The position numbers and the translations under genes were made by a program. Shown one piece after another: positions 30,506-58,964 of a stretch of DNA of 64,000 nucleotides (position 1 is its first letter; the number at the start of each line of letters is the position of its first letter). Under the pieces are notes generated by a model, which did not search any database, was not told the origin of the DNA, and saw nothing but the letters and a program-made list of their open reading frames with translations. Origin of the DNA: Candidatus Tanganyikabacteria bacterium (GTDB lineage Bacteria; Cyanobacteriota; Sericytochromatia; S15B-MN24; VGJW01); the NCBI GenBank assembly GCA_016867265.1, contig VGJW01000010.1, positions 35,525 to 99,524 of the forward strand. Reading direction: 5' to 3'.

Positions 30506-30718
30506 GTGAAGAAACTCCTGCCCCTCGCTGCCGTCGTTGCCGTGACTACCGCCTGCCCCGGCGGTAATACCACCGCAAGCAATCCGACCCCGGCGCCGGC
30601 TGCGCCGACCGTTGCGCCGACCGTTGCGCCGACCGTTGCGCCGACCGTTGCGCCGACCGCTGCGCCGACCGCTAAGCCTACCGCAGCCCCGAACTCCAGC
30701 CTGGGCGGCGGCAACTAG
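30506..30718 (+). CDS. small secreted lipoprotein with (APTV)4(APTA)2 Pro/Thr-rich repeat
   Basis: GTG after AAGGA; MKKLLPLAAVVAVTTAC lipobox; 70 aa; sits in a 450-bp lower-GC intergenic region at the head of the polysaccharide locus. Confidence 0.45.
   Translation: MKKLLPLAAVVAVTTACPGGNTTASNPTPAPAAPTVAPTVAPTVAPTVAPTAAPTAKPTAAPNSSLGGGN
30602..30673 (+). repeat. 6 x 12-bp perfect/near-perfect tandem repeat (GCGCCGACCGTT x4, GCGCCGACCGCT x2)
   Basis: Seen directly; in-frame within the mini-lipoprotein; VNTR-like. Confidence 0.8.
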
Positions 30719-30751
30719 GCAGAGAACCTGCGGGGCGGCGGCCTGATCCCC

Positions 30752-31546
30752 TTGGTTCAGCTGCCGCTCTCGCGACTTTTCCCTGATTCAATGCCTAACC
30801 GCACCTTCCCTTCCAAGACTGGCAGCGTACGCCCCAGCCATCTGCGGGTGGTTTCCGGCACCGCTGGCCTGCTTGGTCGGCGGTCTTGGGAAGATCGGCT
30901 CGCCTCGATGGGTGTGGCGCGGCACCCGTCCCTCGTGGGTGCCGGGGGCGTCGTCAAGCGCTTGCTCGACATCTTGGGTGCCGTCGTCGGTTTGGCCGTG
31001 ATGTTGCCGGTCTTTGCGGTGGTGTCCTTGGCGATTCGGTGGGATTCACCGGGCCCGGTGTTCTTCACGCAGGAGCGTGTGGGTTGGAACGGCCGCCGGT
31101 TCCGGATTCTGAAGTTCCGCACCATGGTCGTCGATGCCGAGGCAATGCGTGCTGCGCTCGCGTCCCGCAACGAGATTGCGGACGGGCCCATCTTCAAGAT
31201 GAAGGAAGATCCCCGGGTGACGCGCGTAGGGCTTTTTCTGCGCCGGTCCAGCCTCGACGAGTTCCCCCAGCTATTCAATATTCTGGCCGGGGACATGTCG
31301 CTCGTGGGTCCGCGTCCTCCCTTGCCCTCCGAGGTCGACGACTACGCCGACCGGGATCTGGAGCGCCTTCGGGTGATGCCGGGCGCCACCGGGACCTGGC
31401 AGGTCTCGGACCGCCGGGGCGGGACGAGTTTCCGCGAGATGGTGGACCTCGACTTGCAGTACGCGGCGACGTGGTCGCTGCTGCTCGACGTGTCCATTCT
31501 CTTGCGGACCGTGCTGCTGGTGCTTCGCCTGCAGGGATCGCGTTGA
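30752..31546 (+). CDS. polyprenyl-phosphate sugar phosphotransferase (bacterial sugar transferase, WbaP/WcaJ C-terminal domain type)
   Basis: PGPVFFTQERVGWNGRRFRILKFRTM...DEFPQLFNILAGDMSLVGPRPPLPSEV; re-entrant helix LLDILGAVVGLAVMLPVFAVVSLAI; start uncertain (in-frame ATGs at 30791 and 30908 are alternatives). Confidence 0.8.
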   Translation: MVQLPLSRLFPDSMPNRTFPSKTGSVRPSHLRVVSGTAGLLGRRSWEDRLASMGVARHPSLVGAGGVVKRLLDILGAVVGLAVMLPVFAVVSLAIRWDSPGPVFFTQERVGWNGRRFRILKFRTMVVDAEAMRAALASRNEIADGPIFKMKEDPRVTRVGLFLRRSSLDEFPQLFNILAGDMSLVGPRPPLPSEVDDYADRDLERLRVMPGATGTWQVSDRRGGTSFREMVDLDLQYAATWSLLLDVSILLRTVLLVLRLQGSR

Positions 31547-31651
31547 CGCTGCCCGCGCGTGCGGGCTACGATGAGCAATTGCACCTGTTCTCAGTTTCAG
31601 GGTCGCCGCGCCACGTCTGGCGGTCGGGCAATCCCCTGCAGGAGGCCTGAG

Positions 31652-32872
31652 TTGGGCACCCCAAGACGTCGACTGTTCACATCGGAGTCCGTGACCGAGG
31701 GTCACCCGGACAAACTGTGCGACCAAATCTCGGATACCGTGCTCGACGCGGTACTTGCCCAGGACCCCTTGGGGCGTGTCGCTTGCGAAACGGTGGCCAA
31801 CACCGGCTTCATCCTGGTCACGGGCGAGATCTCGACCCAGGCCCAACTCGACATCCCGTCGCTCGTTCGCAAGGTCCTGCGCGATGTTGGCTACACGGAC
31901 GCGCGTTACGGGATTGATGCGGCCTCGTGTGCCGTTCTGGTTGCGCTCGACCAGCAGTCGCCCGACATCGCGGCAGCCGTCGATCGGTCTTGGGAGGTCC
32001 GGGGCGGCCTGTCCGAGCGAGAGCGGGACGCTGCGATCGACGCCATCGGCGCCGGCGATCAGGGCTTGGTCTTCGGTTATGCGTGCGACGAGACGCCCGA
32101 CGGCATGCCGTTGCCCATCGACCTGGCCCATCGTCTGGCGATGCGCCTGACCGAGGTGCGCAAGTCGGGCTTGCTGCCGTGGCTGCGCCCGGACGGCAAG
32201 ACGCAAGTCACGTTGGCCTATGAGGGCGACCGTCCGGTGGCCGTCGATACCATTCTGCTTTCGACGCAGCATGACGAGGGCGTGACGCTGGGCGAGATCG
32301 AGGAGGCCGTGCGTACGCACGTCATCGCGCCCGTCGTGTCGGGTGATCTGATGACGGGAGAGACGCGCATCCTCGTCAATCCCTCCGGGCGTTTCGTCAC
32401 GGGCGGTCCCCAGGGCGATGCCGGCCTGACGGGGCGCAAGATCATCGTCGATACCTATGGCGGCTACGCCCGCCATGGGGGTGGGGCGTTCTCGGGCAAG
32501 GATCCCACCAAGGTCGATCGCTCCGGCGCTTACGCCGCGCGCCATGTGGCGCGCCATGTCGTGGCGGCGGGCCTCGCGCGCCGTTGCGAGATTCAGGTCA
32601 GCTACGCCATCGGCAAGGCGCGTCCGGTCTCGGTTTCTGTCGAGACCTTCGGGACAGCCGTCGTGGACGAGGCGCTCATCGAGCGGGCCGTGGCCGAGGT
32701 CTTCGACCTCCGTCCTGCCGGCATCATTCGTGCCTTTGACCTCAGGCGACCCCTCTATCGCCCGACGGCGACCTACGGCCACTTCGGGGATCGTCCCGGC
32801 GACAGGCCTTGGGAGCGGCTGGATTGCCTTGAGGTCCTCAAGGCCAGCGTGTCCGGGGTGGTGTCGGCTTGA
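31652..32872 (+). CDS. metK: S-adenosylmethionine synthetase
   Basis: TTG 6 nt after GGAGG; [26 protein letters not shown] is the invariant MetK N-terminus; 406 aa; track ORF extends upstream. Confidence 0.9.
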
Positions 32873-35226
32873 GCTGGCGCTGGCCTGCGGCTTGCCTGAT
32901 GGCGCTGTCGGTCGCCATGCCCTCCTGGGCGGTCGAGGACGCGGTCCTGCGTGGCCCGGCGGTGGCGGGGCCAGGTCTTCAGCCCGTTGTCGCACCGGCG
33001 AACGTCGTCGGGCCAGCGCCTGCGCCTGTTCCCACCCCCGAGGCGACGCCCGAGCCTCTGTCGCCGGTCGAGCGCTACATGTCGCAGGGCATGGACAGGC
33101 CTCTGCGTCAGTACGGCTTCCGTGCCCTGGCCCAGCCGGCGTCGTCCGGTGTCGTCAGCGAGGCCGATGTGCCCGAAGATTACCCCTTGGGCCCCGGCGA
33201 CCAGATCATCCTTGACGTGCCCATGCTGGCGGCGCCGCTCGACTCCGTCATTGCCAGAGATGGTTCGGTGTTCCTGCCGGGATCTGGGCCCGTGGTTTTG
33301 GCTGGGCTGACGATGCAGGCGGCCGAGCAGGCGCTGCGCAAGCGCGCTCGTGGTGCGGCCATCAAGCTGCGACTCGGTCGACTGCGGCAGATCTCCGTCG
33401 TGCTGGCGGGGCGCGTGCAACAGCCCGGCCTGCATGCGGTGCCGGCCGTGACGTCGATGCTGGGCCTGCTCCAGCGGGCCGGCGGCGTCCAGAAGGCCGG
33501 CTCGTTGCGGCGCATCCAGATCCAGCGCAGCGGGCGCAAGGTGGCGACGGTCGACCTCTATGGGCTCTTGCTGGAGGGCCTGGGGGCCGATGTGCGCCTG
33601 TTGCCCGGTGACACCGTCTTCGTGCCCGAGTCCGGGCCGACGGTCGCGGTGGCCGGTGAGGTGCGGGAGCCGGCCATCTACGAGATGCTGCCGGGCGAGA
33701 CGCTCGGCAGGGCGCTGGCCCTCGCGGGTGGTGCCTTGCCCGGGGGCTTCCTGCCCGGAGTTTCGCTGCTGCGCTCCGGTCGTGGGGACGGCCGCGAGGT
33801 CAGGACCCTGGATCTCACGCGTGATGCCGACCGTTCCATGCCGGCCCGCGATGGCGATGTCGTCGTGGTTCAGGCCAGTGCGACCGAACTTGCCAACGGC
33901 GTGGACCTGCGCGGCCATGTCTACCGGCCCGGCCCGCGGGCGTGGACGTCGGGCATGCGCGCCTCCGAGGTCCTGGGTGCGCCCGGCCTGCTCAAGCCTG
34001 ACGCCTGGTTGGGCCATGCCCTCGTCGAACGTGAGCGGGGACGCGATCGCCACCGTGAAGTGCTGTCGTTCGACCTGGGCAAGGCGCTCGAGCGGGATCC
34101 GGCACACGATGTGGTGCTCGAGGCCCGGGACGTCCTGACGGTCTATCCCCGTGAGGCCTTCGAGCGCGAGCCTCAGGCCACCGTCGCCGGTGCCGTGCTG
34201 CGGCCGGGCACCTACAGGGTTTATCCGGGCATGCGGATGTCGCAGCTCATCGAGGCCGCGGGTGGCCTCGCGCCAGAGGCCGACCAGCTCGCGGCCGAGC
34301 TGACGCGTCGACGCGTCGAGGGTAATGGCCTCGTCAGCGAGCGTGTCACGGTGCGGCCCGGCCTCGCGGTTTCGCGCAGGGGCACCGAGGTCGACGTGCC
34401 CGTCCTGCGGGACGATGCCTTGCGCATCAAGCAGGTCGAGAACTTCCGCGGTCTGCGCAACGTGGTGGTTCGGGGTGAGGTCGCTCAGCCGGGCGCTTAC
34501 ACCCTGCTCGAGGGGGATACTTTGGCGTCTCTGATCGAACGGGCCGGGGGCTACCGCAGCCGGGCGTTCCTGCCCGGCGCGGTCTTCACGCGCGAGATGG
34601 TCCGCAAGGTGCAACGGACGCAGTTGGACAACCTCACGCGCAAGCTCGAGGCCGAGTTGGCCGCAGAGGCCGGCAAGGCCGCATCGAGCGGCCAGTCGGC
34701 AGTGGCGGCGCAGGCGGCCAAGCAGGCCCTGGTCGCGGCCCTTCGGGCCCAGGACGTCTCGGGGCGCGTCGTCGTAAAGCTCGACGACCCCGGCAAGATG
34801 CGCAGTGAGGGCAATGACCTGCTGCTCGAGGATGGCGACGAGCTGGTCGTGCCGCTACCGAACGAGACGATGACCGTCATTGGTGCCGTCTATACGCCGT
34901 CGGCCGTCACCTACAGGCCCGGCGTGCCCGTGCGTGAGTTGCTGCGGATTGCCGGCGGCGCCACGGCGATGGCCGACCTCGACAACATGTATGCCGTGCG
35001 GGCCGATGGCCGGGTGCACGCCCTGCCCACCTATCGCGAGGGCTGGTTCCTGCTGTCGCGTGGCCTGATGGATTCCGAGGTCGGCCCCGGCGATACGCTG
35101 GTGCTGCCCGAGCGCATCGAGCTCAGGGATCCGCTGACGATCTGGACCCAGGTGGCCCAGATTGTCGGCCAGAGCCTGAACTCGGCTGCGGTCCTCTACG
35201 GCATCCTGCGCAACACCGGCAACTAG
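32869..35226 (+). CDS. periplasmic polysaccharide export protein (Wza/KpsD-like, Poly_export + multiple SLBB domains)
   Basis: Signal peptide; [12 protein letters not shown]... Poly_export motif; repeated LxPGDxVxVP SLBB-like units; 785 aa. Confidence 0.8.
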
Positions 35227-36314
35227 TCCGGCGCGTCGAGGCGCTCCCGTAGCCACGCCGCGGCCATCCGCTGGCGCACGTCGCCGAGGCCCGGTGCCGG
35301 CGCGAACCCGTTGGCGGCCAAGTACCCCGTTGCCGCGTAGGTGTAGGTGAACATGCCTGGCCAGCGCACGCGGACCGGGCGCGGGGCGTCGGCCGGGCGG
35401 GGACCCATATCCAGACCGATGCCCAGCGTCAGGCTGGTCCCGTGCTGGTCTGATCGCGCAGCGGCGGCCTCGATCCAGCCTCGCGCGAAGGTCCGTCGGA
35501 CCGCCCCGAAAGGTGCGCTGTCCCCCAGGGGAAAGCGGCCCCACCCTGCCTTGAGCGTCAGGCCCGTGCCAGGCAGATAGGTTTCGCCCCAGGCCCGCAG
35601 CTCTTGCCGGCGTCCGGCAAGCAGCTCTTGCCCGACGCGCCCCCGCAGCGCAAGGACGCCGCCCCACGCATCCCATCCGGCTTCGACCCCGGCGTGGGGT
35701 TGCCAGGTGTCGCCCAGCACGCCGGCGGGCCCGCCGCTCGCCAGCCACGCGACGACCAGCCATGGCCCGAGATCGCGTTTCTGCCAGCCCAGAAGGCCTC
35801 GGATCGGGTCCGGCGGGCTGCCATCCAGCGGCACCTGAGCGCGCCCTTCGATCCATGTGCCCGGGGCGATGGGGACCGTGCCCTCGACGCGCAACAGGGG
35901 CGTGACGACGTAGGGATTGAAGCGGACCGTCGGGTGGACGGACAGGTCCGGGCGCCACCACGGCTGGCCGTCATGCGGCGCGGCTGCCGGTGGCTCGAGG
36001 GGGCCCAGGATGTGCCACGAGGCACCTTGCCCGTATCGGCGGGACGCGCGCCACGATCCCGCCGTCGTCGAGACGGCGCAGGGGACCTGACCCAAGAGCA
36101 TGGGCGCCAGCACCCACGTCGCCTCGTCGGGGAGCGTCCGGTCCAGCACGTCCGCGACTTCCGCAAGGGCCTGGCGGGGATCGGCGTGGCGGCGGTCCAT
36201 CCAGGCCACGAGCCAGCGCGTCCCGTCGACCTGGATCCGGACATCCTCATAGCCCAGGGCGAGCAGCCTGTCCTGCAGGACGACCGCCTGCGGGACGGGG
36301 ACATCCATCGGCAT
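35223..36314 (-). CDS. hypothetical Trp/Gly-rich protein, possibly outer-membrane (exopolysaccharide-associated)
   Basis: Chosen among three overlapping frames because the alternatives are Arg/Ser-rich nonsense; convergent 4-nt overlap with wza-like gene. Confidence 0.35.
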   Translation of the reverse strand: MPMDVPVPQAVVLQDRLLALGYEDVRIQVDGTRWLVAWMDRRHADPRQALAEVADVLDRTLPDEATWVLAPMLLGQVPCAVSTTAGSWRASRRYGQGASWHILGPLEPPAAAPHDGQPWWRPDLSVHPTVRFNPYVVTPLLRVEGTVPIAPGTWIEGRAQVPLDGSPPDPIRGLLGWQKRDLGPWLVVAWLASGGPAGVLGDTWQPHAGVEAGWDAWGGVLALRGRVGQELLAGRRQELRAWGETYLPGTGLTLKAGWGRFPLGDSAPFGAVRRTFARGWIEAAAARSDQHGTSLTLGIGLDMGPRPADAPRPVRVRWPGMFTYTYAATGYLAANGFAPAPGLGDVRQRMAAAWLRERLDAPD

Positions 36315-36342
36315 GGGATGGGCGATGCTACCATGGCCCCCG

Positions 36343-37317
36343 ATGACAGGTGACGGGCTTCTTGCGGTGTGGGGCGAAGGTGCGGTGGCGGTCCTCGGCT
36401 ACGGGGCCCAAGGCAGGGCCCATGCCCTCAACCTGAGGGACAGTGGTGCCGCGGTACGGGTCGGGTTGCACGCGGGGGCTCGTCGGGCCGAACTGGCCCG
36501 GGACGATGGCTTCGTGCCGGGCGACGTCCGAGAGGCCGTCCAGAGTGCCTCGATGGTGGCCTTGATGGTGCCGGACGAAGTCATCCCTGCCGTGCTCGCT
36601 CAGGTTTCGGACCTGCTCGAGCCCGGCGTGGCCGTCGTGCTGGCCCATGGCTATGCCTACCGCTATGCCTCCGGGGCATGGCGCGGGGATCTCGATGCGC
36701 TGCTCGTGGCGCCGATGGGTCAGGGCCGGGCAGTGCGTGATGCCTACGTGGCGGGCGGTGGCATCCCGGCTTTCCTTGCCGTCCACCATGACGCCACCGG
36801 CAGGGCGCGACCGCGTGCCGAGGCCTATGCCCGCGCCCTGGGGGCCCATCGGGCGGGGCTGCACTGGGGCACTGTCGCCCAAGAGACCGAGGTCGACCTG
36901 TTCGCGGAGCAGGCCGTGTTGGTCGGTGGCGTCGAGACGCTCGTGCGCGAGGCCTTCTCGGTGCTGGTCGAGGCCGGCTATCCCGAAGACGTGGCTTACT
37001 TCTCGTGCCTGCATGAGCTGAAGCTGGTCGTCGACCTGTTGCACGAGGGGGGCCTGGGCGGCATGGCCCGGCAGATCAGCAACACGGCCGAATTCGGTGC
37101 GCTAAGGGCGCGGGAGCAGTATGCCCGTGCGCCCGTTCGCGAGGCCATGGAGCGCCTGTTGGCCGAGATTCGCGACGGTACCTTTGCCTCGGCGTGGTCG
37201 GCCGAGGCTGCAGCGGGCATGCCCCTGCTGGCGGCCGCGCGCGAGGCGACCGCGTCAGCGCCCCTGGAGCGGGTCGGCGAGGCCTTGCGGGTCCGATTGG
37301 CCCGGAACCGGGTGTGA
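36343..37317 (+). CDS. ilvC: ketol-acid reductoisomerase (class I), divergent
   Basis: VLGYGAQGRAHALNLRDSG, MVPDE, VLAHGYAY...LLVAPMGQGRAVR, ETEVDLFAEQAVLVGG, SNTAEFG all align with KARI motifs; isolated from other ilv genes. Confidence 0.75.
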   Translation: MTGDGLLAVWGEGAVAVLGYGAQGRAHALNLRDSGAAVRVGLHAGARRAELARDDGFVPGDVREAVQSASMVALMVPDEVIPAVLAQVSDLLEPGVAVVLAHGYAYRYASGAWRGDLDALLVAPMGQGRAVRDAYVAGGGIPAFLAVHHDATGRARPRAEAYARALGAHRAGLHWGTVAQETEVDLFAEQAVLVGGVETLVREAFSVLVEAGYPEDVAYFSCLHELKLVVDLLHEGGLGGMARQISNTAEFGALRAREQYARAPVREAMERLLAEIRDGTFASAWSAEAAAGMPLLAAAREATASAPLERVGEALRVRLARNRV

Positions 37318-37337
37318 ACGTTCCCGACCAGGACGGG

Positions 37338-38012
37338 ATGGCCTTGGCGGGTTGGACAGGCTTGCTGCGCGTGCCGACGGCCGAGGTCCGCCCGGATCTC
37401 GCCCTTGGGCTGGCCTGGCAAGAGGGCTCCGATCCGCCGCTGCGCTACGCCGTGACCCAGCGGGTCAATCGACATCTGGTGCTTTGCGTGCCCCTGTGGT
37501 CGTGGCTCGAGGTCGGGATCGGGATGTTGCAGGTGCCGGGCTGGATAGATCCCCTCGTGCCGGCACTCCCCGCAGGGGCTGTCCATCGGACCAGCCACCT
37601 CAAGCTGCGCGCGCCTTGGTCGCCGGGAGGCTGGAGCCTGGCAGTGGGCGTCTTCGATCCGCTGTCGGCCAACGGCCTCGTCGGCCTCGACGGCACGCGC
37701 TACGGCATGGGCACGGCTTATGCGGTGGGCACGCGCGTGCTCGGGGCGACGCGGCTGACATTGGGATGGGCCACGGGCGACCCGTGGCGTCCGGGCCAGG
37801 CTGCGGCCCCGTGGTGGCCGGGACCCATGGCCGGACTCGAACATGCAGTCGCCTTGCCCCTCGGTTTGCCCGATGTGCGCCTGCTCGCTGACTGGAACGG
37901 CAGGTCCGCCTGGGCTGGCTTGCGCTGGTCGCCCGCCAGCAGCGTGACGTTGCAGGTCGGTGGCGGTGACGGCGTCGTCTCGGCATCGTGCGTCGGACGG
38001 ACGCCCCTCTAG
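37338..38012 (+). CDS. hypothetical Trp/Gly-rich protein (putative beta-rich secreted/OM protein)
   Basis: ATG 37338 (GTG 37314 alternative) just after ilvC stop; no domain recognised. Confidence 0.35.
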   Translation: MALAGWTGLLRVPTAEVRPDLALGLAWQEGSDPPLRYAVTQRVNRHLVLCVPLWSWLEVGIGMLQVPGWIDPLVPALPAGAVHRTSHLKLRAPWSPGGWSLAVGVFDPLSANGLVGLDGTRYGMGTAYAVGTRVLGATRLTLGWATGDPWRPGQAAAPWWPGPMAGLEHAVALPLGLPDVRLLADWNGRSAWAGLRWSPASSVTLQVGGGDGVVSASCVGRTPL

Positions 38013-38052
38013 CCCCGGTTTACCGACCCGGAGGGCAGGGAACGGATCGCCC

Positions 38053-39000
38053 ATGCAGTCCTCCGCCGCAGGCACGTCCTCGACTTCTTCTCCCCGTCGT
38101 GTCCTGGAGGCCCTGAGGCCCGCTGTCGTGGGCCACGACGAGGCACTGGCCCATGTCGTGGCGGCCCTGCTTGCCGGGGGGCACATCCTGCTCGAGGACG
38201 TGCCCGGCGTCGGCAAGACCTTGATTGCCCGGACCCTGGCCCAGGTCGTAGGCGGTGAGTTCAAGCGTGTCCAGTCCAGCCCGGACCTGATGCCGTCGGA
38301 CATCACGGGCACGCATGTCTTCCAGCCGGCCGAAGGCACCTTCCGGTTCATGCCGGGGCCCGTCTTCGCGAACATTCTCCTGGCCGACGAGATCAACCGC
38401 GCCTCCCCGAGGACCCAGGCCGCCCTGCTCGAGGCCATGGAGGAGGGGGCCGTCACCGTCGATGGCGTCCGGCATCCCCTGCCGCGACCGTTCCTGGTGG
38501 TCGCGACGCAGAACCCCGTCGAGTTCCAGGGCACCTTTCCCCTGCCGGAGGCCCAGCTCGATCGCTTTGCGCTCAGCTTGACGCTGGGCTATCCCGCGCC
38601 CGAGGACGAGGTGCGCCTGTTGTCCGGCGTCTGGGCGCGCCAGGAGCAGCCGACACTGGCCGAGCCCGTGGGCCTCGAGACCCTGTTGGGCTGGCAGGAA
38701 CAGGTCCGGGCGGTTCATATCGATCCGTCGTTGCAGACGTATGTCGTCCGGGTGCTGGGTGCCACGCGCGACCACCCCAGGGTCCTGCTGGGCGTCAGCC
38801 CCCGGGGCGGCCTCGTGTGGCAAAGGCTGGCACAGGCCAGGGCCTTGCTTGAAGGCCGTGACCACGTCGTGCCGGGCGACCTAACGACCATGGCGCCGCT
38901 TTGCCTGAACCACCGGCTGGTGCTTTCGGGGCGCTCCGGCCGCGCCGTGCGTCAGGAGGTTCTGGACGACCTGCTGACGGCCGTGGCGGTACCGCTCTGA
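38053..39000 (+). CDS. MoxR-family AAA+ ATPase
   Basis: ALLAGGHILLEDVPGVGKTLIARTLA Walker A, LLADEINRASPRTQAALLEAMEE Walker B/sensor; start taken at the Met 15-20 aa before the conserved core. Confidence 0.85.
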   Translation: MQSSAAGTSSTSSPRRVLEALRPAVVGHDEALAHVVAALLAGGHILLEDVPGVGKTLIARTLAQVVGGEFKRVQSSPDLMPSDITGTHVFQPAEGTFRFMPGPVFANILLADEINRASPRTQAALLEAMEEGAVTVDGVRHPLPRPFLVVATQNPVEFQGTFPLPEAQLDRFALSLTLGYPAPEDEVRLLSGVWARQEQPTLAEPVGLETLLGWQEQVRAVHIDPSLQTYVVRVLGATRDHPRVLLGVSPRGGLVWQRLAQARALLEGRDHVVPGDLTTMAPLCLNHRLVLSGRSGRAVRQEVLDDLLTAVAVPL

Positions 39001-39019
39001 GCCGCAGCAGGGCATCCCG

Positions 39020-45608: not shown

Positions 45609-45750
45609 GCGCACTCGGCTGCTTTCGGGCCGCTTGCTCCAGCGGGGCAGGCGGCCTTTGCCATTGGGTGGCTTTCGCTCGGCCGGATAGGGGATGTGCC
45701 CAAGGGGCGCTGGACGTTCGGCCGCGGTCAATCCACCATGGACAGGAGAG

Positions 45751-47767: not shown

Positions 47768-47774
47768 TGTTGCT

Positions 47775-49728: not shown

Positions 49729-49821
49729 TCGGGCTGATCCGGATGGGGGGCGAGGCAGATGCGGACCATGCCCTTGCTGTGGGACCCTATTCTAGCGCCC
49801 CGCCCGAAAAGGACGACAGCG

Positions 49822-51021: not shown

Positions 51022-51039
51022 GCCTGTTTCTGTTGTGGC

Positions 51040-52182
51040 TCACCGGTTTCGCGGGGGCTGCCTCAGGCACGCCAAGGTGCCGTTGACGAAACGCTCGGCC
51101 ATGGCTTCCGCGGAGAAGCGTGTCCCCGAGGCTCGCGCCCTTTGCGCAAGCTGTCCGCGCCAAACGGGGTCCGACATGACAGCCAGGATGTTTCGGGACA
51201 GCGCCTCGGCATCTGCCTGCGTCATCACGGCATTGACGCCGGGCTCCACATAGTCGAACTCGGCACCGTGCCCCGGGCAATCGGTTGTCAGGATGGGCAG
51301 GCCGGCAACAAGGGCATCCACGACGGCAAGACCGGCATAGGCAGGAAGCAAGAGGGCGTCGGCGACCAGGAAGGCCTCGGCCTTGTCGGTGCCGAAGCGC
51401 GGTCCCAGGGCGTGACAATGCGTGTCCACGGCCGACAACGCTTCTACGAGGGCAGCGTCCGGTCCCTTGCCAACCACGATGAGATGGAGGCCCGGCAGGC
51501 TGCGCTTCGCCAATCGGTATGCATCGAGGACAAGGTCGAGGCGCTTGCCCCGGTACAGGGAGCCGCAAAAGAGCAGGACGGGTGCGTCCTGTGGCAAGCC
51601 AAGCTTCAGCCGTGCAGCTTTCCTGGCCTCGGATGGATCATCCGGGATGGCCGCCCTGAAGTCGGCCGTGTCGATCGAGTTCCATAGGGTCGAAATCCTG
51701 TCTGCGGGAAAGCCTGCCCGCTCCAGGTACCTTCTGCCCCCTTCCGTGTAAGGAAACCACCAGTCGGCATCCTGCGCGACGCGGACCTTGAGTCTTTCGG
51801 GCCAGGAACTGGGAGCACCTTGCGTGGGTCGAGCGGGTCCCATGAAGGCGAAGCGCTTCCTTGCCACGCGTTGGCGCCATCTCTGCCAAGGCTGAAGTGC
51901 GTGTTTGAGGGCCAGCTCCGCGACGAGCAGATCGGGCGGTCGGGAAAACCCGGCGAGCGGCTGAATGAGGATGCGGTCCGAGAGCAGCCATTGGCCGGGA
52001 ATGCGCTTGCCGATGGGCCAATCCAGATCGATGTTGTCTCCCTTGGCGGCCTCGCTTGGTGGGGGCACGCTGTAAAGGCAGTGGAAACTGATGCCTTCCT
52101 CGCCGAGGAAGGCATGGACGTTGGCAAGGAAGCGCCGTCGATACTGCTTGGCGACGGCCTGCATCAGGATGACCGTGCTCAT
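51040..52182 (-). CDS. glycosyltransferase family 4
   Basis: LHLIVVGKGPDA...LLLPAYAGLAVVDALVAGLPILTTDCPGHGAEFDYVE. Confidence 0.85.
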   Translation of the reverse strand: MSTVILMQAVAKQYRRRFLANVHAFLGEEGISFHCLYSVPPPSEAAKGDNIDLDWPIGKRIPGQWLLSDRILIQPLAGFSRPPDLLVAELALKHALQPWQRWRQRVARKRFAFMGPARPTQGAPSSWPERLKVRVAQDADWWFPYTEGGRRYLERAGFPADRISTLWNSIDTADFRAAIPDDPSEARKAARLKLGLPQDAPVLLFCGSLYRGKRLDLVLDAYRLAKRSLPGLHLIVVGKGPDAALVEALSAVDTHCHALGPRFGTDKAEAFLVADALLLPAYAGLAVVDALVAGLPILTTDCPGHGAEFDYVEPGVNAVMTQADAEALSRNILAVMSDPVWRGQLAQRARASGTRFSAEAMAERFVNGTLACLRQPPRNR

Positions 52183-53291
52183 CCGAGGGCCTCGTCGTAG
52201 AGCAACTCCAGCTTTGCGGTCTGCTTGTCTACGTCGAAGTTCCGCGCGACCCAGTCACGGCCGGCACGTCCCATTTGCCTTGCCTTGTCTTCGTGGTCTG
52301 CCAGGAAGATCAGGGCCTGCGCCAGCGCATCCGGGTCGTCGGGGGGAACGAGCAGTCCGGTCCGGCCATCGTCGAGGGCCTCGGGGATGCCGCCGAGTTG
52401 GCTGCCGATGACAGGTGTGCCACAAGCCGCTGCCTCCAGCAGCACCATGCCGAGGCCCTCTGTCTGTCCATCCGAAGCCTGCCGGGAAGGCAAGATGAGA
52501 GCCAGGGACTGACGATAGAGCCGAGGCAGTTCCGTTTGAGGAACGAATGGTGTGAAGTCGACAAGTGAAGATGTGCCGAGCGATGTCACCAAGTCCTTGA
52601 GAGACTGGGTCAGGGGGCCTTGACCCACCAAGACAAGCCTGATGTCGGGGTGGATCCCGGCCAGTCTCGCATGGGCGCGGATCAGGATATCCAGTCCCTT
52701 CACCGCGATATGTCTGGCAACGGCAACCAAGATGCGCCTCGGACCGAGGTCAAGCTCGACTGAGTTGAACCGACTTGTGTTAATTCCTGTGTAGATAGTA
52801 ACGATTTTTTCGGCATCGCATCCAGAGGAAATCAAACTTTTTCCGATGAAGTTGGAAACAGCTATTACTCGTCTCGCCATCTTATGCATGGCGCGTCTTT
52901 GTGCCACGAAGGCCCAATTTGTCGGTTTTTTTGTCAAAAGTAACGACAAGGGGCGAATGGTGGCATCAAAGCCGTGATAGGTGACAAAAAGAGGACATCC
53001 CCAAGCCCGGGCGATGGGCATGGCGGCAACGCCATCGGGACCGAAGTGAGCGTGTACGAGGCTCGGGACCGGTCCTGACCAAGCCTTGATGTAGGGCCAG
53101 GGGGAGCCCAGACGGGCGAGCAGGCGCAGGGATGCGTGTGTTGTGCTGACCGTGAGGGTATCGTCGATGCGTCGCGCTTCACGGGATAACACGGTGGCTT
53201 GGTAACGACGCATCGCCAAGGCTTGGATGGTGATGAAGGGTTCCTGGTCGGGCGACCAGACCGTCCTGAAGATGGCAACTCCGGGTTTCAT
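52179..53291 (-). CDS. glycosyltransferase family 4
   Basis: Start at MKPGVAIF (ATG 53291, ATGA-type overlap with upstream gene); C-terminal LILPSRQASDGQTEGLGMVLLEAAACGTPVIGSQLGGIPE; contains a ~250-bp 43% GC tract (52750-53000). Confidence 0.8.
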   Translation of the reverse strand: MKPGVAIFRTVWSPDQEPFITIQALAMRRYQATVLSREARRIDDTLTVSTTHASLRLLARLGSPWPYIKAWSGPVPSLVHAHFGPDGVAAMPIARAWGCPLFVTYHGFDATIRPLSLLLTKKPTNWAFVAQRRAMHKMARRVIAVSNFIGKSLISSGCDAEKIVTIYTGINTSRFNSVELDLGPRRILVAVARHIAVKGLDILIRAHARLAGIHPDIRLVLVGQGPLTQSLKDLVTSLGTSSLVDFTPFVPQTELPRLYRQSLALILPSRQASDGQTEGLGMVLLEAAACGTPVIGSQLGGIPEALDDGRTGLLVPPDDPDALAQALIFLADHEDKARQMGRAGRDWVARNFDVDKQTAKLELLYDEALG

Positions 53292-54511
53292 CCTGTTGCC
53301 TCCCGGGCTTTCGATTGATCCGCGACCCGCGCCGCCAGAACCTGGGGCAGGATGGACAAGGCCAGCCAAATGAATGGGGACGAGACGCCGGCCCCGGCGG
53401 GTTCGAAAATAGCTTCGCCCACCACGGCGAGCAGCATGGCCATGCCTGTTGCCGGTCCGAGCGGCGAGTCCGACCCGCGGCAAAGTCGCCACCACGCACT
53501 GGCGCCCGCCCCGGTAACGGCCAGATACCCCACGAAGCCCGGAATTCCGTAGTAGAGAATCTGGTTCCACCAAGTGCTGTGGCAATTGGGATAGGACACG
53601 CGCGACAGCAGCAAAGTCCAGCTTTCCATGTCACCCGACGGCTTTCCGATCAGCCACGCTATCGGGTCGGTGCCCAGCGCCGCGGCTCCGGCAAGCCACA
53701 TGTTGACACGCGTGAGGACGGTCGGTGCCTCTATATGGCCCTCGGCATCCGGCCAGACGGTATAGAAGAGAATGGCCATGTCGAGCAGGGCCATCAGCAG
53801 CAGCGGCAATTGACGGGACCAGGTTGGCCCGACCCTCCAGAAGGGACCGAGGAAGCAAAGCAAGAGTCCGAGCCCGGCCCAGATCATGACCCCCTTGGCG
53901 GCGGTGCACGACAACGCGGCCAGCACCAGGAGGATGGCGGGCACGGCGAAGGAGCGACTTGCCGGATGCAAGGCCATGCCGCCGAGACCGACGGTGGCTG
54001 GTAGCAGGAGCAGGGCCAGGCCGTTCGGGTGATTGAACAGGCCGACAGCAAAGTGCGCCATCAGTTCGCCGCTGAAGTCGGTCTTGGCGGCAAGGTTTTC
54101 GGAAACTGGTTGCAGGAACGGGCCATCGAGCGTGAATTGGCTGATACCGAGGCCGGCCTGGATCAGGGCGCCTGTCAGGGCGCCCATGGCCAGGCTCTGC
54201 CAGGAGCCTCCCCGGATGACCCAGCGCGCCATGATTATGGTGCACAACCCGGCGCCCGTTACGTCTCGTGCAGCCCGGAGCGCCTCCATGCCTTGGCCGG
54301 ACGATGCCAGACCCGCTGCGCAGATCCACGCGAGGTAGCCCATCAGCACGAGCAACCCACGGGGATATGGCTTCATGGCCCGCTTGTCCTGAGATACGGG
54401 CAGCAGAAAGAGACAGCAGAGCTCCAGCAACGTTGGCCCCGGAAATCCCGAGCCTCCGAGGCGAATCTCCGCGGTTCCGGCAAGACCGGCCAGCCATCCG
54501 GCCCACATCAT
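53288..54511 (-). CDS. O-antigen ligase/Wzy-like polysaccharide polymerase (multi-TM)
   Basis: Start at MMWAGW (54511, 1-nt overlap with upstream stop); ~10 TM; periplasmic loop HSTWWNQILYYGIPGFVG resembles the H-N-x-YL...G..G ligase motif. Confidence 0.7.
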   Translation of the reverse strand: MMWAGWLAGLAGTAEIRLGGSGFPGPTLLELCCLFLLPVSQDKRAMKPYPRGLLVLMGYLAWICAAGLASSGQGMEALRAARDVTGAGLCTIIMARWVIRGGSWQSLAMGALTGALIQAGLGISQFTLDGPFLQPVSENLAAKTDFSGELMAHFAVGLFNHPNGLALLLLPATVGLGGMALHPASRSFAVPAILLVLAALSCTAAKGVMIWAGLGLLLCFLGPFWRVGPTWSRQLPLLLMALLDMAILFYTVWPDAEGHIEAPTVLTRVNMWLAGAAALGTDPIAWLIGKPSGDMESWTLLLSRVSYPNCHSTWWNQILYYGIPGFVGYLAVTGAGASAWWRLCRGSDSPLGPATGMAMLLAVVGEAIFEPAGAGVSSPFIWLALSILPQVLAARVADQSKAREATG

Positions 54512-55902
54512 CACGCAGCCCTCGCCTTGTCGCGGAAGCGTGTGATGATTAGCCAGCCCGCACCGAGGCTTGCCGTCAGGGCGCATGCGGGCCACGCACG
54601 TACCTCGCGGGCTGCCGCCAACATCATCAGTCCGGCAAGCCACGGAAGCAGGCCAAGCCAGATTTCTTTCCCCAGAACGCCGGGAAGGATGGCGTTGGAA
54701 AGTCTGCCCTGGGCGACAAGGAGCACAAGGGCCACGGTGCCGGTTGCGGCAGCGATGGCCGTCGGCGAGGCTGGGGACGGAAGCAGGGCGAATATTGCGG
54801 CCTGAGCAGCGAATCCGACGGCCTGGACGGCCGGTATTCCCCACGGGCGTGGGGCGATCAGTTGCCCGAAGGAGAAGATGCCCGCGAGGCCCTGTGCCCC
54901 GATGACGGATATCAGCAGGGCAAGCAGTCGCAGATCAAGCGTCAGTCCGGGTGCCATCCATGCCAACAGGTAGGGACCGGCAAGAATCAGCAGGGTCGCC
55001 ACCGTGATATAGGCAAGCAGGATGTGACGAAGCGCCCGGGATAGCTTTCCGACGGCAACGGCGGGCTCCTCTCCCTGCAGACGAAAGACGAACGGGGGCC
55101 ACCACAGAGCAAGTGGCGCGATGATGGTCGGGCTCATCACTGCGGCGACCTTGAGATGCAGGCTGTAATGGCCCAGCACCTCCGGTGACCAAGTCGCGAC
55201 CAGCCACCACCTGTCCAACTGAGTGGCTGCCAGTCCCAGTAGGCTGGAAAGAAGCAGTGGGGCGCCATAGGCCACGGCCGTCCGCCAATCGGGAGCGGGG
55301 GGCGCTTCTTCTTGCCCGGTGTCTGTCGTTTTCCCCTGTCCCCACGCTGCGAGGAACGAGATGCCCGCAGCCAGCCACGCTGCCGTTGCAAGACGCATGC
55401 TGAGGGTGGTCAAGGGTGACGCGCCCAGGTCCGGGGCCGCATGGAGCCATGTCAGGACCGTGCATTGGCGCGCAAGAACCGCGAGGGCCCAAGCCAAGGG
55501 ACGCTGTTGTCCCCTCAGGCAAGACTGGCCCACGAGGAAAAGGCCCTCTCCGACAATCCAAAGCATCAGGGTCGGCACAAGGGCAACCGGCATCAAACCG
55601 ATCGCGGCAATAACGGCAAGGATACCGAGGACCAGCAAGATGCCCGGCGGTAGCAAGCGTCCCAGCAGCGGCAGCAGTGCCGCTGCTCGCCGCCTGTGCT
55701 GCCCGACGATGCGGATGGTGAAAAAATTCAGCCCCAAGACGACAAACTGGGCCAGCAGGGCAGTTGCTGACTCAAGCAGCCCCCAGAGGCCAAAGTTCGC
55801 AGGACCCGCTGAGCGTACCACAAGCGGTATGGTCAGGAAGGTCAGCAAGGCGCCTGCCCCGGTTGCGGCAGGGTAGGCCAGCGCGCCCAGCCTAGCGATC
55901 AC
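54511..55902 (-). CDS. Wzx-type oligosaccharide flippase (polysaccharide biosynthesis protein family)
   Basis: 12-14 TM; N-terminal ARLGALAYPAATGAGALLTFLTIPLVVRSAGPANFGLW matches the flippase family start; GTG 55902 chosen to minimise overlap with upstream gene, start uncertain (ORF open to 56070). Confidence 0.7.
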   Translation of the reverse strand: MIARLGALAYPAATGAGALLTFLTIPLVVRSAGPANFGLWGLLESATALLAQFVVLGLNFFTIRIVGQHRRRAAALLPLLGRLLPPGILLVLGILAVIAAIGLMPVALVPTLMLWIVGEGLFLVGQSCLRGQQRPLAWALAVLARQCTVLTWLHAAPDLGASPLTTLSMRLATAAWLAAGISFLAAWGQGKTTDTGQEEAPPAPDWRTAVAYGAPLLLSSLLGLAATQLDRWWLVATWSPEVLGHYSLHLKVAAVMSPTIIAPLALWWPPFVFRLQGEEPAVAVGKLSRALRHILLAYITVATLLILAGPYLLAWMAPGLTLDLRLLALLISVIGAQGLAGIFSFGQLIAPRPWGIPAVQAVGFAAQAAIFALLPSPASPTAIAAATGTVALVLLVAQGRLSNAILPGVLGKEIWLGLLPWLAGLMMLAAAREVRAWPACALTASLGAGWLIITRFRDKARAA

Positions 55903-56506
55903 GGGATTCGTCCAAGTGGCGAATCCTCCTTGCCGGGAGGCCGCCGACCAATGTGCGATCTTCGACTTCGCCACGAACAACCGCGTGGGCGGCCACGACG
56001 GCATGGGCTCGGATGGTCGTACCCTTGAGGATTGACACCATCCTGCCGACCCACACGTTGTTCTCGACACGAATGGCGGCGGCGTTCATGGGCTGGTTGC
56101 GATAGGGCCGGTCTCCAGAGAGGCCATGATCCGCATCCCGAAGACAGGTCCCCTCCCCGAAGATGCTGTCGCGGCCGACGGTGATGCCTTGTACGGCAGC
56201 CAGAACGTTCAGGCCCGTGAAGCGAACATCGTCGTCGAGGACCAGGTCCGCCTCCGGACCGATGTCGAGCGTGATGTGCCGACCGAAGTGCACGCGGGCG
56301 CCAATCCGGTAGCCCTGATGGGGCGGTTGCTTGAAGTGGATGCCCTTGGCCACGCGAAGGCCCGGTCCGCAGCGGCCACCGCAAAGGATGATCAGGCCCC
56401 TGATGCAGACGCCTCGCCAGAGGGACTCCCAGCGATTTGCAAGCCTCCAGGTGGCCGGAAGCAGTCGGTCAAGCCGCAAGCTGCTGCAGTCCCTTCCGAA
56501 TGTCAC
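55892..56506 (-). CDS. hexapeptide-repeat acetyltransferase (WcaF/WbbJ-like)
   Basis: Left-handed beta-helix repeats ...IRVENNVWVGRMVSILKGTTIRAHAVVAAHAVVRGEV... Confidence 0.75.
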   Translation of the reverse strand: MTFGRDCSSLRLDRLLPATWRLANRWESLWRGVCIRGLIILCGGRCGPGLRVAKGIHFKQPPHQGYRIGARVHFGRHITLDIGPEADLVLDDDVRFTGLNVLAAVQGITVGRDSIFGEGTCLRDADHGLSGDRPYRNQPMNAAAIRVENNVWVGRMVSILKGTTIRAHAVVAAHAVVRGEVEDRTLVGGLPARRIRHLDESRDR

Positions 56507-57596
56507 CCCAGAACACGCCGATCAGCAGGCCCGCGAGCGCACTGGCAATCGTCATGGCCGCACGTTTCGGACGGGCGTGTCGGTCCGGCAGAATCGGGGG
56601 ATCCAGGATGGCATAGGGTGCCAATGTGTTCTGGCTTGCCATGTAGGCCGATTGGTACTGCTGGGTGACGACCAGGAACGTAGCCGTCTGAATTTGAACC
56701 TCGCGTTGCAAACGGGCCAATTTGAGGGCCTTGGGCGGCAGTTGGCCGAGGAGCGTGTTCAGGCGTTCTCTGGCCTGCCGCAGGGCCTTGTCCTGCCCCA
56801 TCACGCCAGCCCGGCGTATCTCGGCTTCCTGCAGGGCTGAGGGTGCGGCTTCGAGGCGGTCGACGCGTTGGTGCAGGTCCCTGACAAGGCTGTTCATCGA
56901 CTGCAGTTCGGCCTCCGACTGCAACTTGGCGCTCTCGAGCTGGGAAAGCGTGCCCATGGCGGCCTGCAGGGTTTCCGGCAACGAGGCCATCTTGTTTTCG
57001 GACTGGAATGTCGCCAAGCCGTCTTCAGCCTTTGCGAGGACCTCCCGGGTGCGATCGAGGCGCAGCGCGGCGTCTGCGAGTCGTCGCTCGCTGCCCTGCC
57101 GGTCGAGGTCAGACGAGAGCTTGCGCAAGCCCTCGAGGTAGGCCCGAGCCAACTTCAGTGCGTATTCGGGGCGATGCGCCTCGACCGTCACCACGATCAG
57201 CTTGGACTTCAGGCCTGGCTCCTGGATGACCGTGAGCTTGCGCAGCTTTTCCCGCAGGAGGCTTGGTTCCTTGCCGGGGAACTCGGCTGCGAGGCCGGAG
57301 CGGCTGATGACGTCATCTGCCAGGGAGCGGCTGCGCAGGTAGGCCACCAGGTTCATCGTCGAATCACCACCGGACCCACTGCCCATAAGGGCGCCGAACG
57401 CACCCAGCTGCCCCTGAAGACCTGCGCCCAGGTTGCTGGCGAGCAGGCCTTGGGAGACCGGGGCCTCGGGCAGGATCGAGAAGCTGCTCGCCCAGGTGCG
57501 CGGCCACGCGAGGGCCAGCATGACGCCCAGCGCGCCGCCCGCCACCAAGCCCGTCAGGCCGGGCCGGATGCGGCGTGTCAGGTTCTCGAGGCTCAC
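56469..57596 (-). CDS. polysaccharide chain-length determinant (Wzz/PCP family, no kinase domain)
   Basis: TM at both ends, long coiled-coil periplasmic region. Confidence 0.7.
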   Translation of the reverse strand: MSLENLTRRIRPGLTGLVAGGALGVMLALAWPRTWASSFSILPEAPVSQGLLASNLGAGLQGQLGAFGALMGSGSGGDSTMNLVAYLRSRSLADDVISRSGLAAEFPGKEPSLLREKLRKLTVIQEPGLKSKLIVVTVEAHRPEYALKLARAYLEGLRKLSSDLDRQGSERRLADAALRLDRTREVLAKAEDGLATFQSENKMASLPETLQAAMGTLSQLESAKLQSEAELQSMNSLVRDLHQRVDRLEAAPSALQEAEIRRAGVMGQDKALRQARERLNTLLGQLPPKALKLARLQREVQIQTATFLVVTQQYQSAYMASQNTLAPYAILDPPILPDRHARPKRAAMTIASALAGLLIGVFWGDIRKGLQQLAA

Positions 57597-57638
57597 AAGG
57601 TCTCCCGTCGGGCAGGGGGCGAGGCGTCGAAAGCCACG

Positions 57639-58964
57639 CTAGATCGACACGATGCGCTCGCGTCCGGAGGGCACGCGGGCCGTTGCATTCCGGGTGTCCA
57701 CGACGACCTTGGCGTTCTTCACCACCTGCGCGTAATCCACCCGGCTATGATCGGTCATGATGACGGCGCAGTCCGCCCAGGCCAGGCCGGCCTCCAGCTC
57801 GACGGACGTCCGTTCCGTGCCTTGGTCGACGAAGGCAGGGACGAAGGGGTCGTGGTAGCGGATTTCAGCCTCATCGCGTTCCAGCAGCTCGATCAGCTTG
57901 AGGGCCGGGCTTTCCCGCCAGTCCGAAATGTCTTTCTTGTAGGCGACGCCGAGGAGCAGGATGCGCGACCCCGCCACGCTCTTGCGCAGCTTCCCCAAGG
58001 CCTGGATGACTTTCTCGCGGACGTGGTGGTGCATCAGGATGTTGATCTCGCCAGCCAGTTCGATGAAGCGGGTGTGGAAGTCGTACTGGCGTGCCTTCCA
58101 TGTCAGGTAGAAAGGGTCGATGGGGATGCAGTGGCCACCGACGCCCGGGCCCGGGTTGAAGCGCATGATGCCGAATGGTTTGGTGTTGGCCGCCTCGACC
58201 ACCTCCCAAACGTCGAGGCCCATCCGATCGCACAGCAGGGCCATCTCGTTGACCATCGCGATGTTGACGGCGCGAAAGGTGTTCTCGAAGACCTTGGTCA
58301 TCTCGGCGACACGAGGGCTAGAGACCGGTACGACATCGAGAATGGTTTGGCGATAGAACGTGGTGGCGATGTCGAGGCATGTACGGGTTACGCCGCCCAC
58401 TACCTTGTTGGTATTCCGCGTGGTGTAGCGTGCGTTGCCCGGATCGACTCGCTCCGGGCTGAAGCTGATGAACAGGTCCTTGCCAACCTCCAGCCCGCTT
58501 TGGGCGAGGATGGGCATCAGGACTTCCTCGGTGGTCCCCGGATAGGTCGTGCTTTCGAGCGAGACCAGCATGCCCGGCCGCAGGTAGGGCACCATCTGTT
58601 CGGCCACGTGGACGATGTACTGGATATCCGGATCGCGGTTGGCATTCAGGGGTGTCGGCACACAGATGACGACGACATCTGCCTCCCCGATGGCGGCAAA
58701 GTCCGTCGAGGCCTTGATGCGGCCAGAAGCCACGAGGTCGGCAAGTTCCCGGTCGTCCACATCCGCGATGTAGTTCTCACCCCGGTTGATGGACGCGACA
58801 CGCTCCGCGCTACGATCCAGACCGACGACGGGGAAGCCCACCTTGGCTTTTTCCACGGCCAGAGGAAGCCCGACGTAGCCAACGCCGACGACGGCAACCC
58901 TGGCCTGACGGGTTTCAATAGCCTGCTTCAGGCTCGCGCCCGCCTCTTTTGCAACAATTTCCAA
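57639..58964 (-). CDS. nucleotide-sugar dehydrogenase (UDP-N-acetyl-D-mannosamine/glucosamine dehydrogenase, WecC/WbpA-like)
   Basis: VAVVGVGYVGLPLAV Rossmann, VVICVPTP, GGHCIPIDP catalytic Cys; 441 aa. Confidence 0.9.
   Translation of the reverse strand: MEIVAKEAGASLKQAIETRQARVAVVGVGYVGLPLAVEKAKVGFPVVGLDRSAERVASINRGENYIADVDDRELADLVASGRIKASTDFAAIGEADVVVICVPTPLNANRDPDIQYIVHVAEQMVPYLRPGMLVSLESTTYPGTTEEVLMPILAQSGLEVGKDLFISFSPERVDPGNARYTTRNTNKVVGGVTRTCLDIATTFYRQTILDVVPVSSPRVAEMTKVFENTFRAVNIAMVNEMALLCDRMGLDVWEVVEAANTKPFGIMRFNPGPGVGGHCIPIDPFYLTWKARQYDFHTRFIELAGEINILMHHHVREKVIQALGKLRKSVAGSRILLLGVAYKKDISDWRESPALKLIELLERDEAEIRYHDPFVPAFVDQGTERTSVELEAGLAWADCAVIMTDHSRVDYAQVVKNAKVVVDTRNATARVPSGRERIVSI

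Follow-up and report, generated by a model that had tools for sequence, protein, structure and literature searches.

The 64-kb stretch of DNA analysed here (the window; GC content 67.6%) belongs to a population of Candidatus Tanganyikabacteria in Lake Tanganyika, a freshwater clade within the non-photosynthetic Sericytochromatia that was described from this lake (PMC8245535), and it carries genes for a surface polysaccharide of the Wzx/Wzy type. We consider it rather probable that these genes make up a split pathway, in which initiation and export are encoded among core genes, while the remaining functions are encoded by an old, lineage-variable cassette (referred to below as the island) that has diverged together with the core chromosome. 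According to the same reading, of two low-GC troughs found within island genes, the one in gmd is ancestral and the one in the glycosyltransferase gene GT4c is specific to the window and its close relative L029. An original prediction for this DNA had taken both troughs as a signature of horizontally acquired or recombined segments within an approximately 28-kb polysaccharide locus interleaved with housekeeping genes.

The island and its chromosomal site

With the window as the reference, the relatives compared were L029 (dnaG 96% identical to the window), L005 (JAYKIS010000001.1, a contig of a metagenome-assembled genome, or MAG, from a 96%-identical relative), L006 (a MAG contig with dnaG 80% identical at the protein level), L032 (Logan SRR22077877), and the distant relatives L055 and L059 (dnaG 46-50% identical). 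MAGs with the label Candidatus Sericytochromatia are the source of the closest dnaG genes, and the Zn-ribbon protein described below bears the NCBI annotation Candidatus Sericytochromatia/Tanganyikabacteria. A scan of metagenome contigs with dnaG returned distant taxa only (at most 43% identity), with no Sericytochromatia and no extra alleles.

The island extends over 13.45 kb (45611..59067) and lies between two convergent small genes. The gene on its left (45438..45608, forward strand) encodes a Zn-ribbon-like protein of 56 aa with two CxxC pairs, which is kept in the window, L029 and L006 and whose homologs form seven clusters, all of them from Sericytochromatia- or Cyanobacteria-like MAGs. 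On the right there is a small open reading frame (ORF) of 100 aa (59068..59370, reverse strand), whose N-terminus resembles a 72-aa ORF of L006 and which in island-less relatives is convergent with the Zn-ribbon gene. It is followed by a core gene for a di-haem cytochrome c peroxidase (59453..60484, forward strand; CCP_MauG). In L006 the island is absent, and the genes follow one another in the order MoxR, DUF58, TgpA, dnaG, sigma-70, Zn-ribbon, small ORF (reverse strand), cytochrome c peroxidase, o346 and o554. At the DNA level the window and L006 remain homologous through the spacer between the sigma-70 and Zn-ribbon genes, up to the stop codon of the latter. The L006 contig then has 96 bp, including a GC-rich hairpin, between the Zn-ribbon gene and the small ORF, and its peroxidase, 70% identical to that of the window, is found 400 bp from the Zn-ribbon gene. 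As the homology with L006 ends and resumes at the two flanks, the cluster is a discrete block between convergent genes. The idea of a locus interleaved with housekeeping genes over about 28 kb was therefore overstated: what we find is a resident core module, consisting of the genes for a small polyprenyl-phosphate glycosyl-1-phosphate transferase (PGT), MetK and Wza, plus one contiguous cassette located 10-15 kb from PGT and Wza.

The same block occupies the same site in L029, where DNA identity to the window is about 90% and the alignment is gapless, in the core and in the island alike. Of the left flank, the L032 contig includes only the final 28 nt of the Zn-ribbon gene; from there on it has the same gene order as the island of the window, the proteins being 56-86% identical. 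Thus, the presence/absence polymorphism that the original prediction had proposed to look for does exist, and the island shows the feature, expected of genomic islands, of being present or absent among close relatives at a defined site (absent in L006, present in L029 and L032). In L055 and L059 the order from MoxR through sigma-70 to Zn-ribbon is kept, and unrelated genes are found downstream of the Zn-ribbon gene. The slot next to this gene looks like a recurrent synteny breakpoint. Scans of the island with Pfam and for repeats and tRNA genes found no integrase, no tRNA, no insertion sequence (IS) elements and no direct or inverted flanking repeats, and an island of the integrase or tRNA type was rejected on the lack of integrase, tRNA and flanking repeats.

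The neighbourhood of the Zn-ribbon gene is also variable in distant Sericytochromatia-like relatives (L055, positions 9016-10983; L056; L057; L059, positions 8451-12129). An N6/N4 DNA methyltransferase gene stands between sigma-70 and Zn-ribbon in distant relatives, accompanied by a cupredoxin gene in L059, and downstream of the Zn-ribbon gene there are an IS200-type Y1 transposase and an epimerase in L055 and a 5'-nucleotidase in L059. The L005 contig breaks about 300 bp into sigma-70, just ahead of the island site, and several assemblies of the window population stop near the right flank of the island (the L001 contig ends at window position 59784); contig ends of this kind are typical of strain-variable regions.

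Age, composition and the low-GC tracts

Synonymous divergence (dS) between the window and L029 is alike in core genes (dnaG 0.36, sigma-70 0.32) and in island genes (fcl 0.33, GT4a 0.23, GT4b 0.30, Wzy 0.19, Wzx 0.19). The island was therefore already present in the common ancestor of the two, and any acquisition must have been ancient; the discordance with the core that would mark a recent arrival was not found. A comparison with L032 reaches further back. At four-fold sites, the gmd genes of the window and L032 have an identity of 0.31, where composition alone would give 0.285, which means saturation; for the dnaG genes of the window and L006 the observed identity is 0.50 and the expected one 0.35, and these sites are thus unsaturated. 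In the comparison of the window with L029 the two genes have equal four-fold identity (0.76 for gmd and 0.74 for dnaG). As gmd is saturated, dnaG is not, and the two rates are alike when measured against L029, the L032 allele predates the split between the window and L006. Taken together, these sequence comparisons favour either an ancient island that was later lost in L006, or an exchange of old alleles at a fixed site. The claim of horizontal acquisition can thus be kept in part: the whole cluster is a compositionally distinct, lineage-variable block, which is the classic picture for O-antigen and exopolysaccharide (EPS) loci, whereas a recent import is not what the data indicate.

The compositional difference concerns the entire block, and not only the troughs. 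GC content is 63.5% in positions 45176-58964 and 69.6% in positions 30506-45175, so the local background of about 70% GC assumed in the original prediction does not hold for the block. Mean GC content at third codon positions (GC3) is 0.744 in 12 cluster genes and 0.836 in 27 core genes (Mann-Whitney p 5e-6). The island thus has the deviation from host composition expected of a genomic island, both GC and GC3 being lower. On the other hand, GC3 of individual genes is nearly identical in the window, L029 and L032 (0.68, 0.68 and 0.67 for gmd; 0.73, 0.73 and 0.74 for fcl), and that of the island (about 0.74) resembles the GC3 of the L006 core (0.72-0.80). Lower GC is a stable property of the island.

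Within this block, sliding-window GC and in-frame GC3 analysis confirmed that GC3 is non-uniform and that both intragenic dips are real, albeit milder than first described (54.2% instead of about 50% in gmd, and 45.0% instead of about 43% in GT4c). Measured over 250 bp, GC drops below 56% at only five places in the 64 kb: three of them lie between genes, and the other two are the gmd and GT4c tracts. Both tracts show a local compositional shift with sharp edges, as a mosaic segment would. A nearest relative different from that of the flanks, which is another feature of mosaic segments, was found for neither of them. Restriction to a single lineage differs between the two: the gmd tract is present in all three versions of the island, and the GT4c patch in the window and L029 only, so that the latter is possibly derived.

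The gmd gene (45760..46848, forward strand, TTG start) encodes GDP-mannose 4,6-dehydratase (TIGR01472, 593 bits, cutoff 415). Its low-GC tract (45861..46430, forward strand) has a GC content of 54% (54.2% for positions 45960-46560), and the GC3 trough spans approximately codons 91-160, where GC3 is 0.54 in comparison to 0.71 elsewhere in the gene. All three versions of the island have the trough at these codons (Fisher p 0.01 in the window, 0.0015 in L029 and 0.03 in L032). Since it is found in all three versions despite synonymous saturation, the sequences indicate that the trough is ancestral and has been maintained. The original prediction read the tract as acquired or recombined, and its occurrence in all three versions is the very outcome that this prediction had itself described as ancestral rather than acquired, and thus counts against acquisition. 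Differences between the window and L029 within the tract, polarised by L032, comprise 10 AT>GC and 11 GC>AT changes; given this balance, amelioration is not in progress. The tract, which codes for the most conserved portion of Gmd, has a dS of 0.56 and a nonsynonymous-to-synonymous ratio (omega) of 0.07, while local DNA identity between the window and L029 drops to 0.84 from about 0.90 elsewhere. A search for a donor by per-segment protein identity gave no alternative nearest neighbour: distant homologs are 0.88-0.89 identical in the tract and L032 is 0.86 identical, an uninformative difference of about 2 residues. The low GC3 is not forced by the Gmd protein sequence, because the 78%-identical gmd of another genome (L033) shows a uniform GC3 of 0.93.

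GT4c (52179..53291, reverse strand) encodes a glycosyltransferase of 370 aa with its true start at the ATG at 53291, and the protein is identical in four assemblies. Its low-GC patch (52561..53100, reverse strand) includes a core of 45.0% GC at 52750-53000 and covers approximately codons 95-180, in which GC3 is 0.47 as compared with 0.73 elsewhere (Fisher p 2e-5). This trough is shared by the window and L029 (0.47 in each) and absent in L032 (0.81). The patch is the most variable segment of the protein: its amino acid identity to the window is 0.63-0.77 in L029 and 0.37-0.60 in L032, and DNA identity of the window to L029 drops locally to 0.77-0.80 from about 0.90 elsewhere. With a dS of 0.77 and an omega of 0.16, the patch is under purifying selection. 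Low omega in both tracts ruled out relaxed selection or pseudogenisation. Only three close homologs of GT4c exist among 5.8 billion proteins, all of them encoded by versions of the island, and the others are at most 42% identical overall. The patch is closest to its own orthologs (78% and 52%), and a protein-level donor search found no homolog above 42% identity in it. The data thus do not show the patch to be a freshly acquired or recombined segment; no donor lineage is visible at the protein level, and omega is low.

We next weigh other explanations of these data. If the two tracts were short pieces that gmd and GT4c had recently received by recombination from donors of lower GC, as part of a mosaicism that drives polysaccharide diversification, then the sharp local GC3 dips, the drops in identity and the raised dS would all be expected, as would the absence of the GT4c dip from L032; moreover, segmental GC mosaics in Salmonella O-antigen clusters are conventionally read as transfer (PMC3715488). 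We nevertheless find such recombination unlikely, as the gmd dip occupies the same codons in three versions despite saturation, AT and GC changes are balanced, neither tract has an alternative nearest neighbour, the only close homologs of GT4c are encoded by island versions, no indels occur at the tract edges and omega is low. A higher dS is to be expected anyway where GC3 is unconstrained. It is about equally doubtful that the lineage of the window recently gained the whole cluster from a distant organism of lower GC. The absence of the cluster from L006, L055 and L059, its GC and GC3 below those of the flanks, and the fact that gmd, apart from the island versions, has its closest homologs in scattered phyla at no more than 78% identity would agree with such a gain, but equal dS in island and core, the lack of mobility genes, tRNA and repeats, and an L032 island at the same site whose divergence exceeds that of the core between the window and L006 (four-fold identity 0.31 versus 0.50) do not. 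Besides, no distant donor is needed, since the GC3 of the island fits that of the core of the sister L006. Finally, the tracts might be assembly chimeras, with foreign gmd and GT4 reads stitched into the contig. The metagenomic source speaks for this, and so does the strong conservation of gmd across phyla, as chimeric joins tend to occur in such genes. However, four independent assemblies, three of JGI samples and one from Logan, contain contigs that encode the exact GT4c protein and match the window at 99.97-100% identity over 2-17.6 kb; the dips therefore do not stem from an error in a single assembly. The gmd trough recurs in L029 and L032, which were assembled independently from other samples, the GT4c trough recurs in L029, and for the GT4c patch there is no close homolog elsewhere from which reads could have come. 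Chimerism was therefore rejected and appears extremely improbable.

Several points weigh against the reading that we prefer, namely a split pathway with an old, co-diverged cassette. Enzymes of the GT26 family, one of which is encoded in the cassette, often act on GlcNAc-PP-lipid made by WecA-type enzymes, and the window contains no enzyme of the WecA type. With a flank of no more than 28 nt for L032, the sequences are compatible both with the loss of an ancient island from L006 and with an exchange of old alleles between lineages. Moreover, dS is raised in both tracts (0.56 and 0.77) in comparison to 0.24-0.49 in their flanks, which could reflect small imported segments, and the donor searches covered protein databases only. 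A small ancient recombination at GT4c in the ancestor of the window and L029 is possibly part of the history as well, given that L032 lacks the trough, although this idea has no positive support in the sequences.

One more speculative idea may be mentioned, which we regard as even less likely than the alternatives involving transfer. The gmd trough may be an embedded nucleic-acid signal that adjusts expression of the fucose branch and the downstream genes, such as an internal promoter, a translational pause, or a sequence bound by a nucleoid or silencing protein, and, alongside, Sericytochromatia may use the gap after the Zn-ribbon gene as a dedicated site at which glycan cassettes are exchanged. 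A promoter consensus scan of 45.0-59.5 kb found no promoter-like sites, and terminator-like sites in the same region occurred at chance level, with no meaningful overlap with the low-GC tracts.

Gene content and the proposed pathway

Gene identities were assigned by Pfam and NCBIfam scans, which confirmed almost all of the genes named in the original prediction (PGT, metK, Wza, ilvC, the MoxR triad, dnaG, rpoD and the genes of the cluster). In the island, gmd is followed by fcl for GDP-L-fucose synthase (46841..47767, forward strand; NF047922, 485 bits with a cutoff of 500, and an Epimerase domain). Next come genes for a GT26 glycosyltransferase of the WecG/TagA/CpsF family (47775..48560, reverse strand; PF03808, 201 bits; TIGR00696, 186 bits), for the glycosyltransferase GT4a (48547..49728, reverse strand; Glyco_trans_1_4 and Glycos_transf_1) and for a secreted or anchored, clan GH-A-like glycoside hydrolase with one N-terminal hydrophobic segment (49759..51021, forward strand). 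The latter, called GH5/39-like in the original prediction, matches Glyco_hydro_cc (PF11790, 38.9 bits) and, weakly, GH39. GT4b (51040..52182, reverse strand; Glycos_transf_1) precedes GT4c. The remaining genes, all on the reverse strand, encode the putative polymerase Wzy (53288..54511), a Wzx-type flippase of the MOP superfamily (54511..55902; PF01943, 38.9 bits, cutoff 28.2) with at least 10 hydrophobic segments, as expected for Wzx, a WbbJ-like hexapeptide-repeat O-acetyltransferase (55892..56479; Pfam/NCBIfam), a chain-length protein resembling Wzz and polysaccharide co-polymerases (PCP) (56469..57596), and an NDP-sugar dehydrogenase (57639..58964; TIGR03026, 430 bits). The Wzz-like protein has no kinase domain and a marginal GNVR score (27.8 bits, cutoff 27.7), and its terminal transmembrane segments (12-32 and 345-364) are those of the PCP/Wzz type. 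The dehydrogenase is closest to UDP-ManNAc dehydrogenase, whose equivalogs score 258-280 bits, under their cutoffs.

The Wzy call required more care, as the candidate, a polytopic membrane protein, has no direct match in Pfam, NCBIfam or PDB. Exhaustive phmmer searches retrieved 110 homologs at E <= 1e-3 among 1.84 billion cluster representatives, and 33 of the 46 aligned homologs match Wzy_C (best E 1.5e-11). On these grounds, through its homologs and not by a direct match, the protein can be placed in the Wzy_C (O-antigen ligase-like) superfamily. Residues R268, H311 and N312 are conserved. The homologs are all at most 38% identical, apart from a 91%-identical ortholog representative, and the Pfam Wzy_C model misses the window protein itself. 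Judging from these matches, the candidate belongs to a rare divergent branch of the superfamily and is a putative polymerase, though it may instead be a ligase.

The resident module lies to the left of the island. PGT (30752..31546, forward strand) has a core-like GC3 of 0.80 and matches Bac_transf of Pfam with 223 bits and EPS_sugtrans of NCBIfam with 279 bits, slightly under the cutoff; an initiating polyprenyl-phosphate sugar-phosphate transferase is thus present, outside the cassette. The same is true of an outer-membrane polysaccharide export (OPX) protein of the Wza type (32869..35226, forward strand; 785 aa; GC3 0.85), in which Poly_export (41.9 bits, cutoff 28) is combined with 5 SLBB repeats and which is 93% identical in L005. 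An OPX/Wza exporter is needed for capsule or EPS rather than for the O-antigen of lipopolysaccharide. Between PGT and wza, and on the same strand, stands metK for S-adenosylmethionine synthetase (31559..32872; three S-AdoMet_synt domains). The order of metK and wza is kept in L005. As the two genes share a strand and the stop of metK overlaps the start of wza by 4 nt, this arrangement suggests that a housekeeping gene is co-transcribed and translationally coupled with the exporter gene.

On the basis of family knowledge, the following pathway can be proposed. The resident module, embedded among core genes, would provide initiation (by the small PGT) and export (by Wza), and the cassette, sitting in the convergent gap after dnaG, rpoD and the Zn-ribbon gene, would supply activated sugars, sugar transfer and processing. 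Gmd and Fcl would make GDP-L-fucose, and the dehydrogenase would make a UDP-N-acetylhexosamine (UDP-HexNAc) uronic acid, most likely of the N-acetylmannosaminuronic acid (ManNAcA) type; the predicted polymer would accordingly contain fucose and a HexNAc uronic acid. PGT would prime undecaprenyl phosphate, the GT26 enzyme and the three GT4 enzymes would build the repeat unit, and the hexapeptide enzyme would O-acetylate it. Wzx would then flip the unit, the Wzy_C-family protein would polymerise it, the Wzz-like PCP would set the chain length, and Wza would export the polymer. The Glyco_hydro_cc enzyme might trim or release it, a role that hydrolases have in other EPS systems. We infer that PGT and Wza, despite their distance, serve the cassette, because it has no PGT or OPX of its own, which is the sole evidence for this assignment.

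The stretch between wza and the Zn-ribbon gene (35223..45175; Pfam) is made up of housekeeping genes: a gene for a 363-aa protein (reverse strand), ilvC, an ORF at about 37314-38012, MoxR, DUF58, TgpA (a transglutaminase), dnaG and a group-1-like sigma-70. This order is kept in L005, L029 and L006; L055 and L059, though distant, have kept the part from MoxR to sigma-70 as well. In L005, conservation from metK and Wza through dnaG amounts to 87-97%. The 363-aa protein (35223-36314, reverse strand) belongs to no Pfam or NCBIfam family, has no hydrophobic segment and is 87% conserved in L005; its gene is convergent with wza, the 3' ends overlapping by 4 nt, and this adjacency to the exporter suggests a possible accessory role in the envelope or in export. 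The apparent gap of about 640 bp between ilvC and MoxR is a stop-free frame (37314-38012, forward strand) with a coding-like GC3 of 0.83; its product of about 230 aa matches no Pfam family, and L005 has a gap of equal length.

The spacer between sigma-70 and the Zn-ribbon gene (45176-45437 in the window, 3572-3835 in L029, 7152-7410 in L006; also upstream of Zn-ribbon in L055 and L059) is conserved like coding DNA (81% between the window and L006) at a GC content of only 54-56%. The motifs CCGAACA, TCTCC and GGGTACAAT, the last with a -10-like TACAAT, are kept even in relatives whose dnaG is 46-50% identical. The spacer probably serves the small Zn-ribbon gene as promoter and leader. It has no Rfam match, and a scan of the whole window with Rfam gave no family at gathering score. 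In the window the hrcA-grpE-dnaK-dnaJ operon (15536-20280) precedes the Zn-ribbon gene by about 25 kb, and in L055 (16074-20174) it is located about 6 kb downstream of that gene and on the opposite strand; this difference in position and strand points to a large rearrangement between the two lineages.

Likeness to known polysaccharide loci

In its content (gmd and fcl, glycosyltransferases, an acetyltransferase, Wzx, Wzy, Wzz/PCP and Wza), the system resembles the enterobacterial O-antigen locus between galF and gnd and the wca cluster for colanic acid. It also shares with Wzx/Wzy O-antigen clusters and group-1-like capsule or EPS clusters a fixed site between conserved genes, variability among lineages and deeply diverged alleles, as well as a GC content under that of the genome and segmental GC heterogeneity, as described for O-antigen clusters (PMC3715488). 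The differences are that the host is an uncultured, non-photosynthetic relative of cyanobacteria with about 68% GC, that PGT and Wza are found 10-15 kb outside the cassette with metK between them, that the GC deficit is modest (6 points), that Wzy is too divergent for a direct Wzy_C match, and that there is no tyrosine kinase or phosphatase.

Cyanobacterial EPS loci, whether of the Wzx/Wzy type or of the hps type known from hormogonia, likewise have their pathway genes spread over more than one locus, and the GT4 enzymes of the window give weak matches to HpsO and HpsP. However, the scores with Hps equivalogs are 30-62 bits against cutoffs of 550-575, and here 12 genes form one compact cassette. 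With islands associated with integrases or tRNA genes the block shares a discrete insertion relative to a sister genome and an atypical composition, but it differs from them in having no integrase, tRNA, direct repeats or IS elements and in having co-diverged with the core. Because of this co-divergence, the island behaves like a replaceable chromosomal cassette rather than like a mobile element.

The architecture and evolution found here are those of a familiar O-antigen, capsule or EPS cassette, in a new and poorly known lineage, and the long persistence of the gmd trough is a mildly unusual point; the remaining biology is conventional. For Candidatus Tanganyikabacteria, from the sister group of cyanobacteria, a cassette for surface polysaccharide and the slot that it occupies in the chromosome are described precisely here for the first time. 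The case also calls for caution, as a low-GC cluster with internal dips resembles a fresh transfer, yet this one has co-diverged with its host and at least one of its dips has persisted through saturation. Atypical GC alone is therefore no evidence of recent acquisition.

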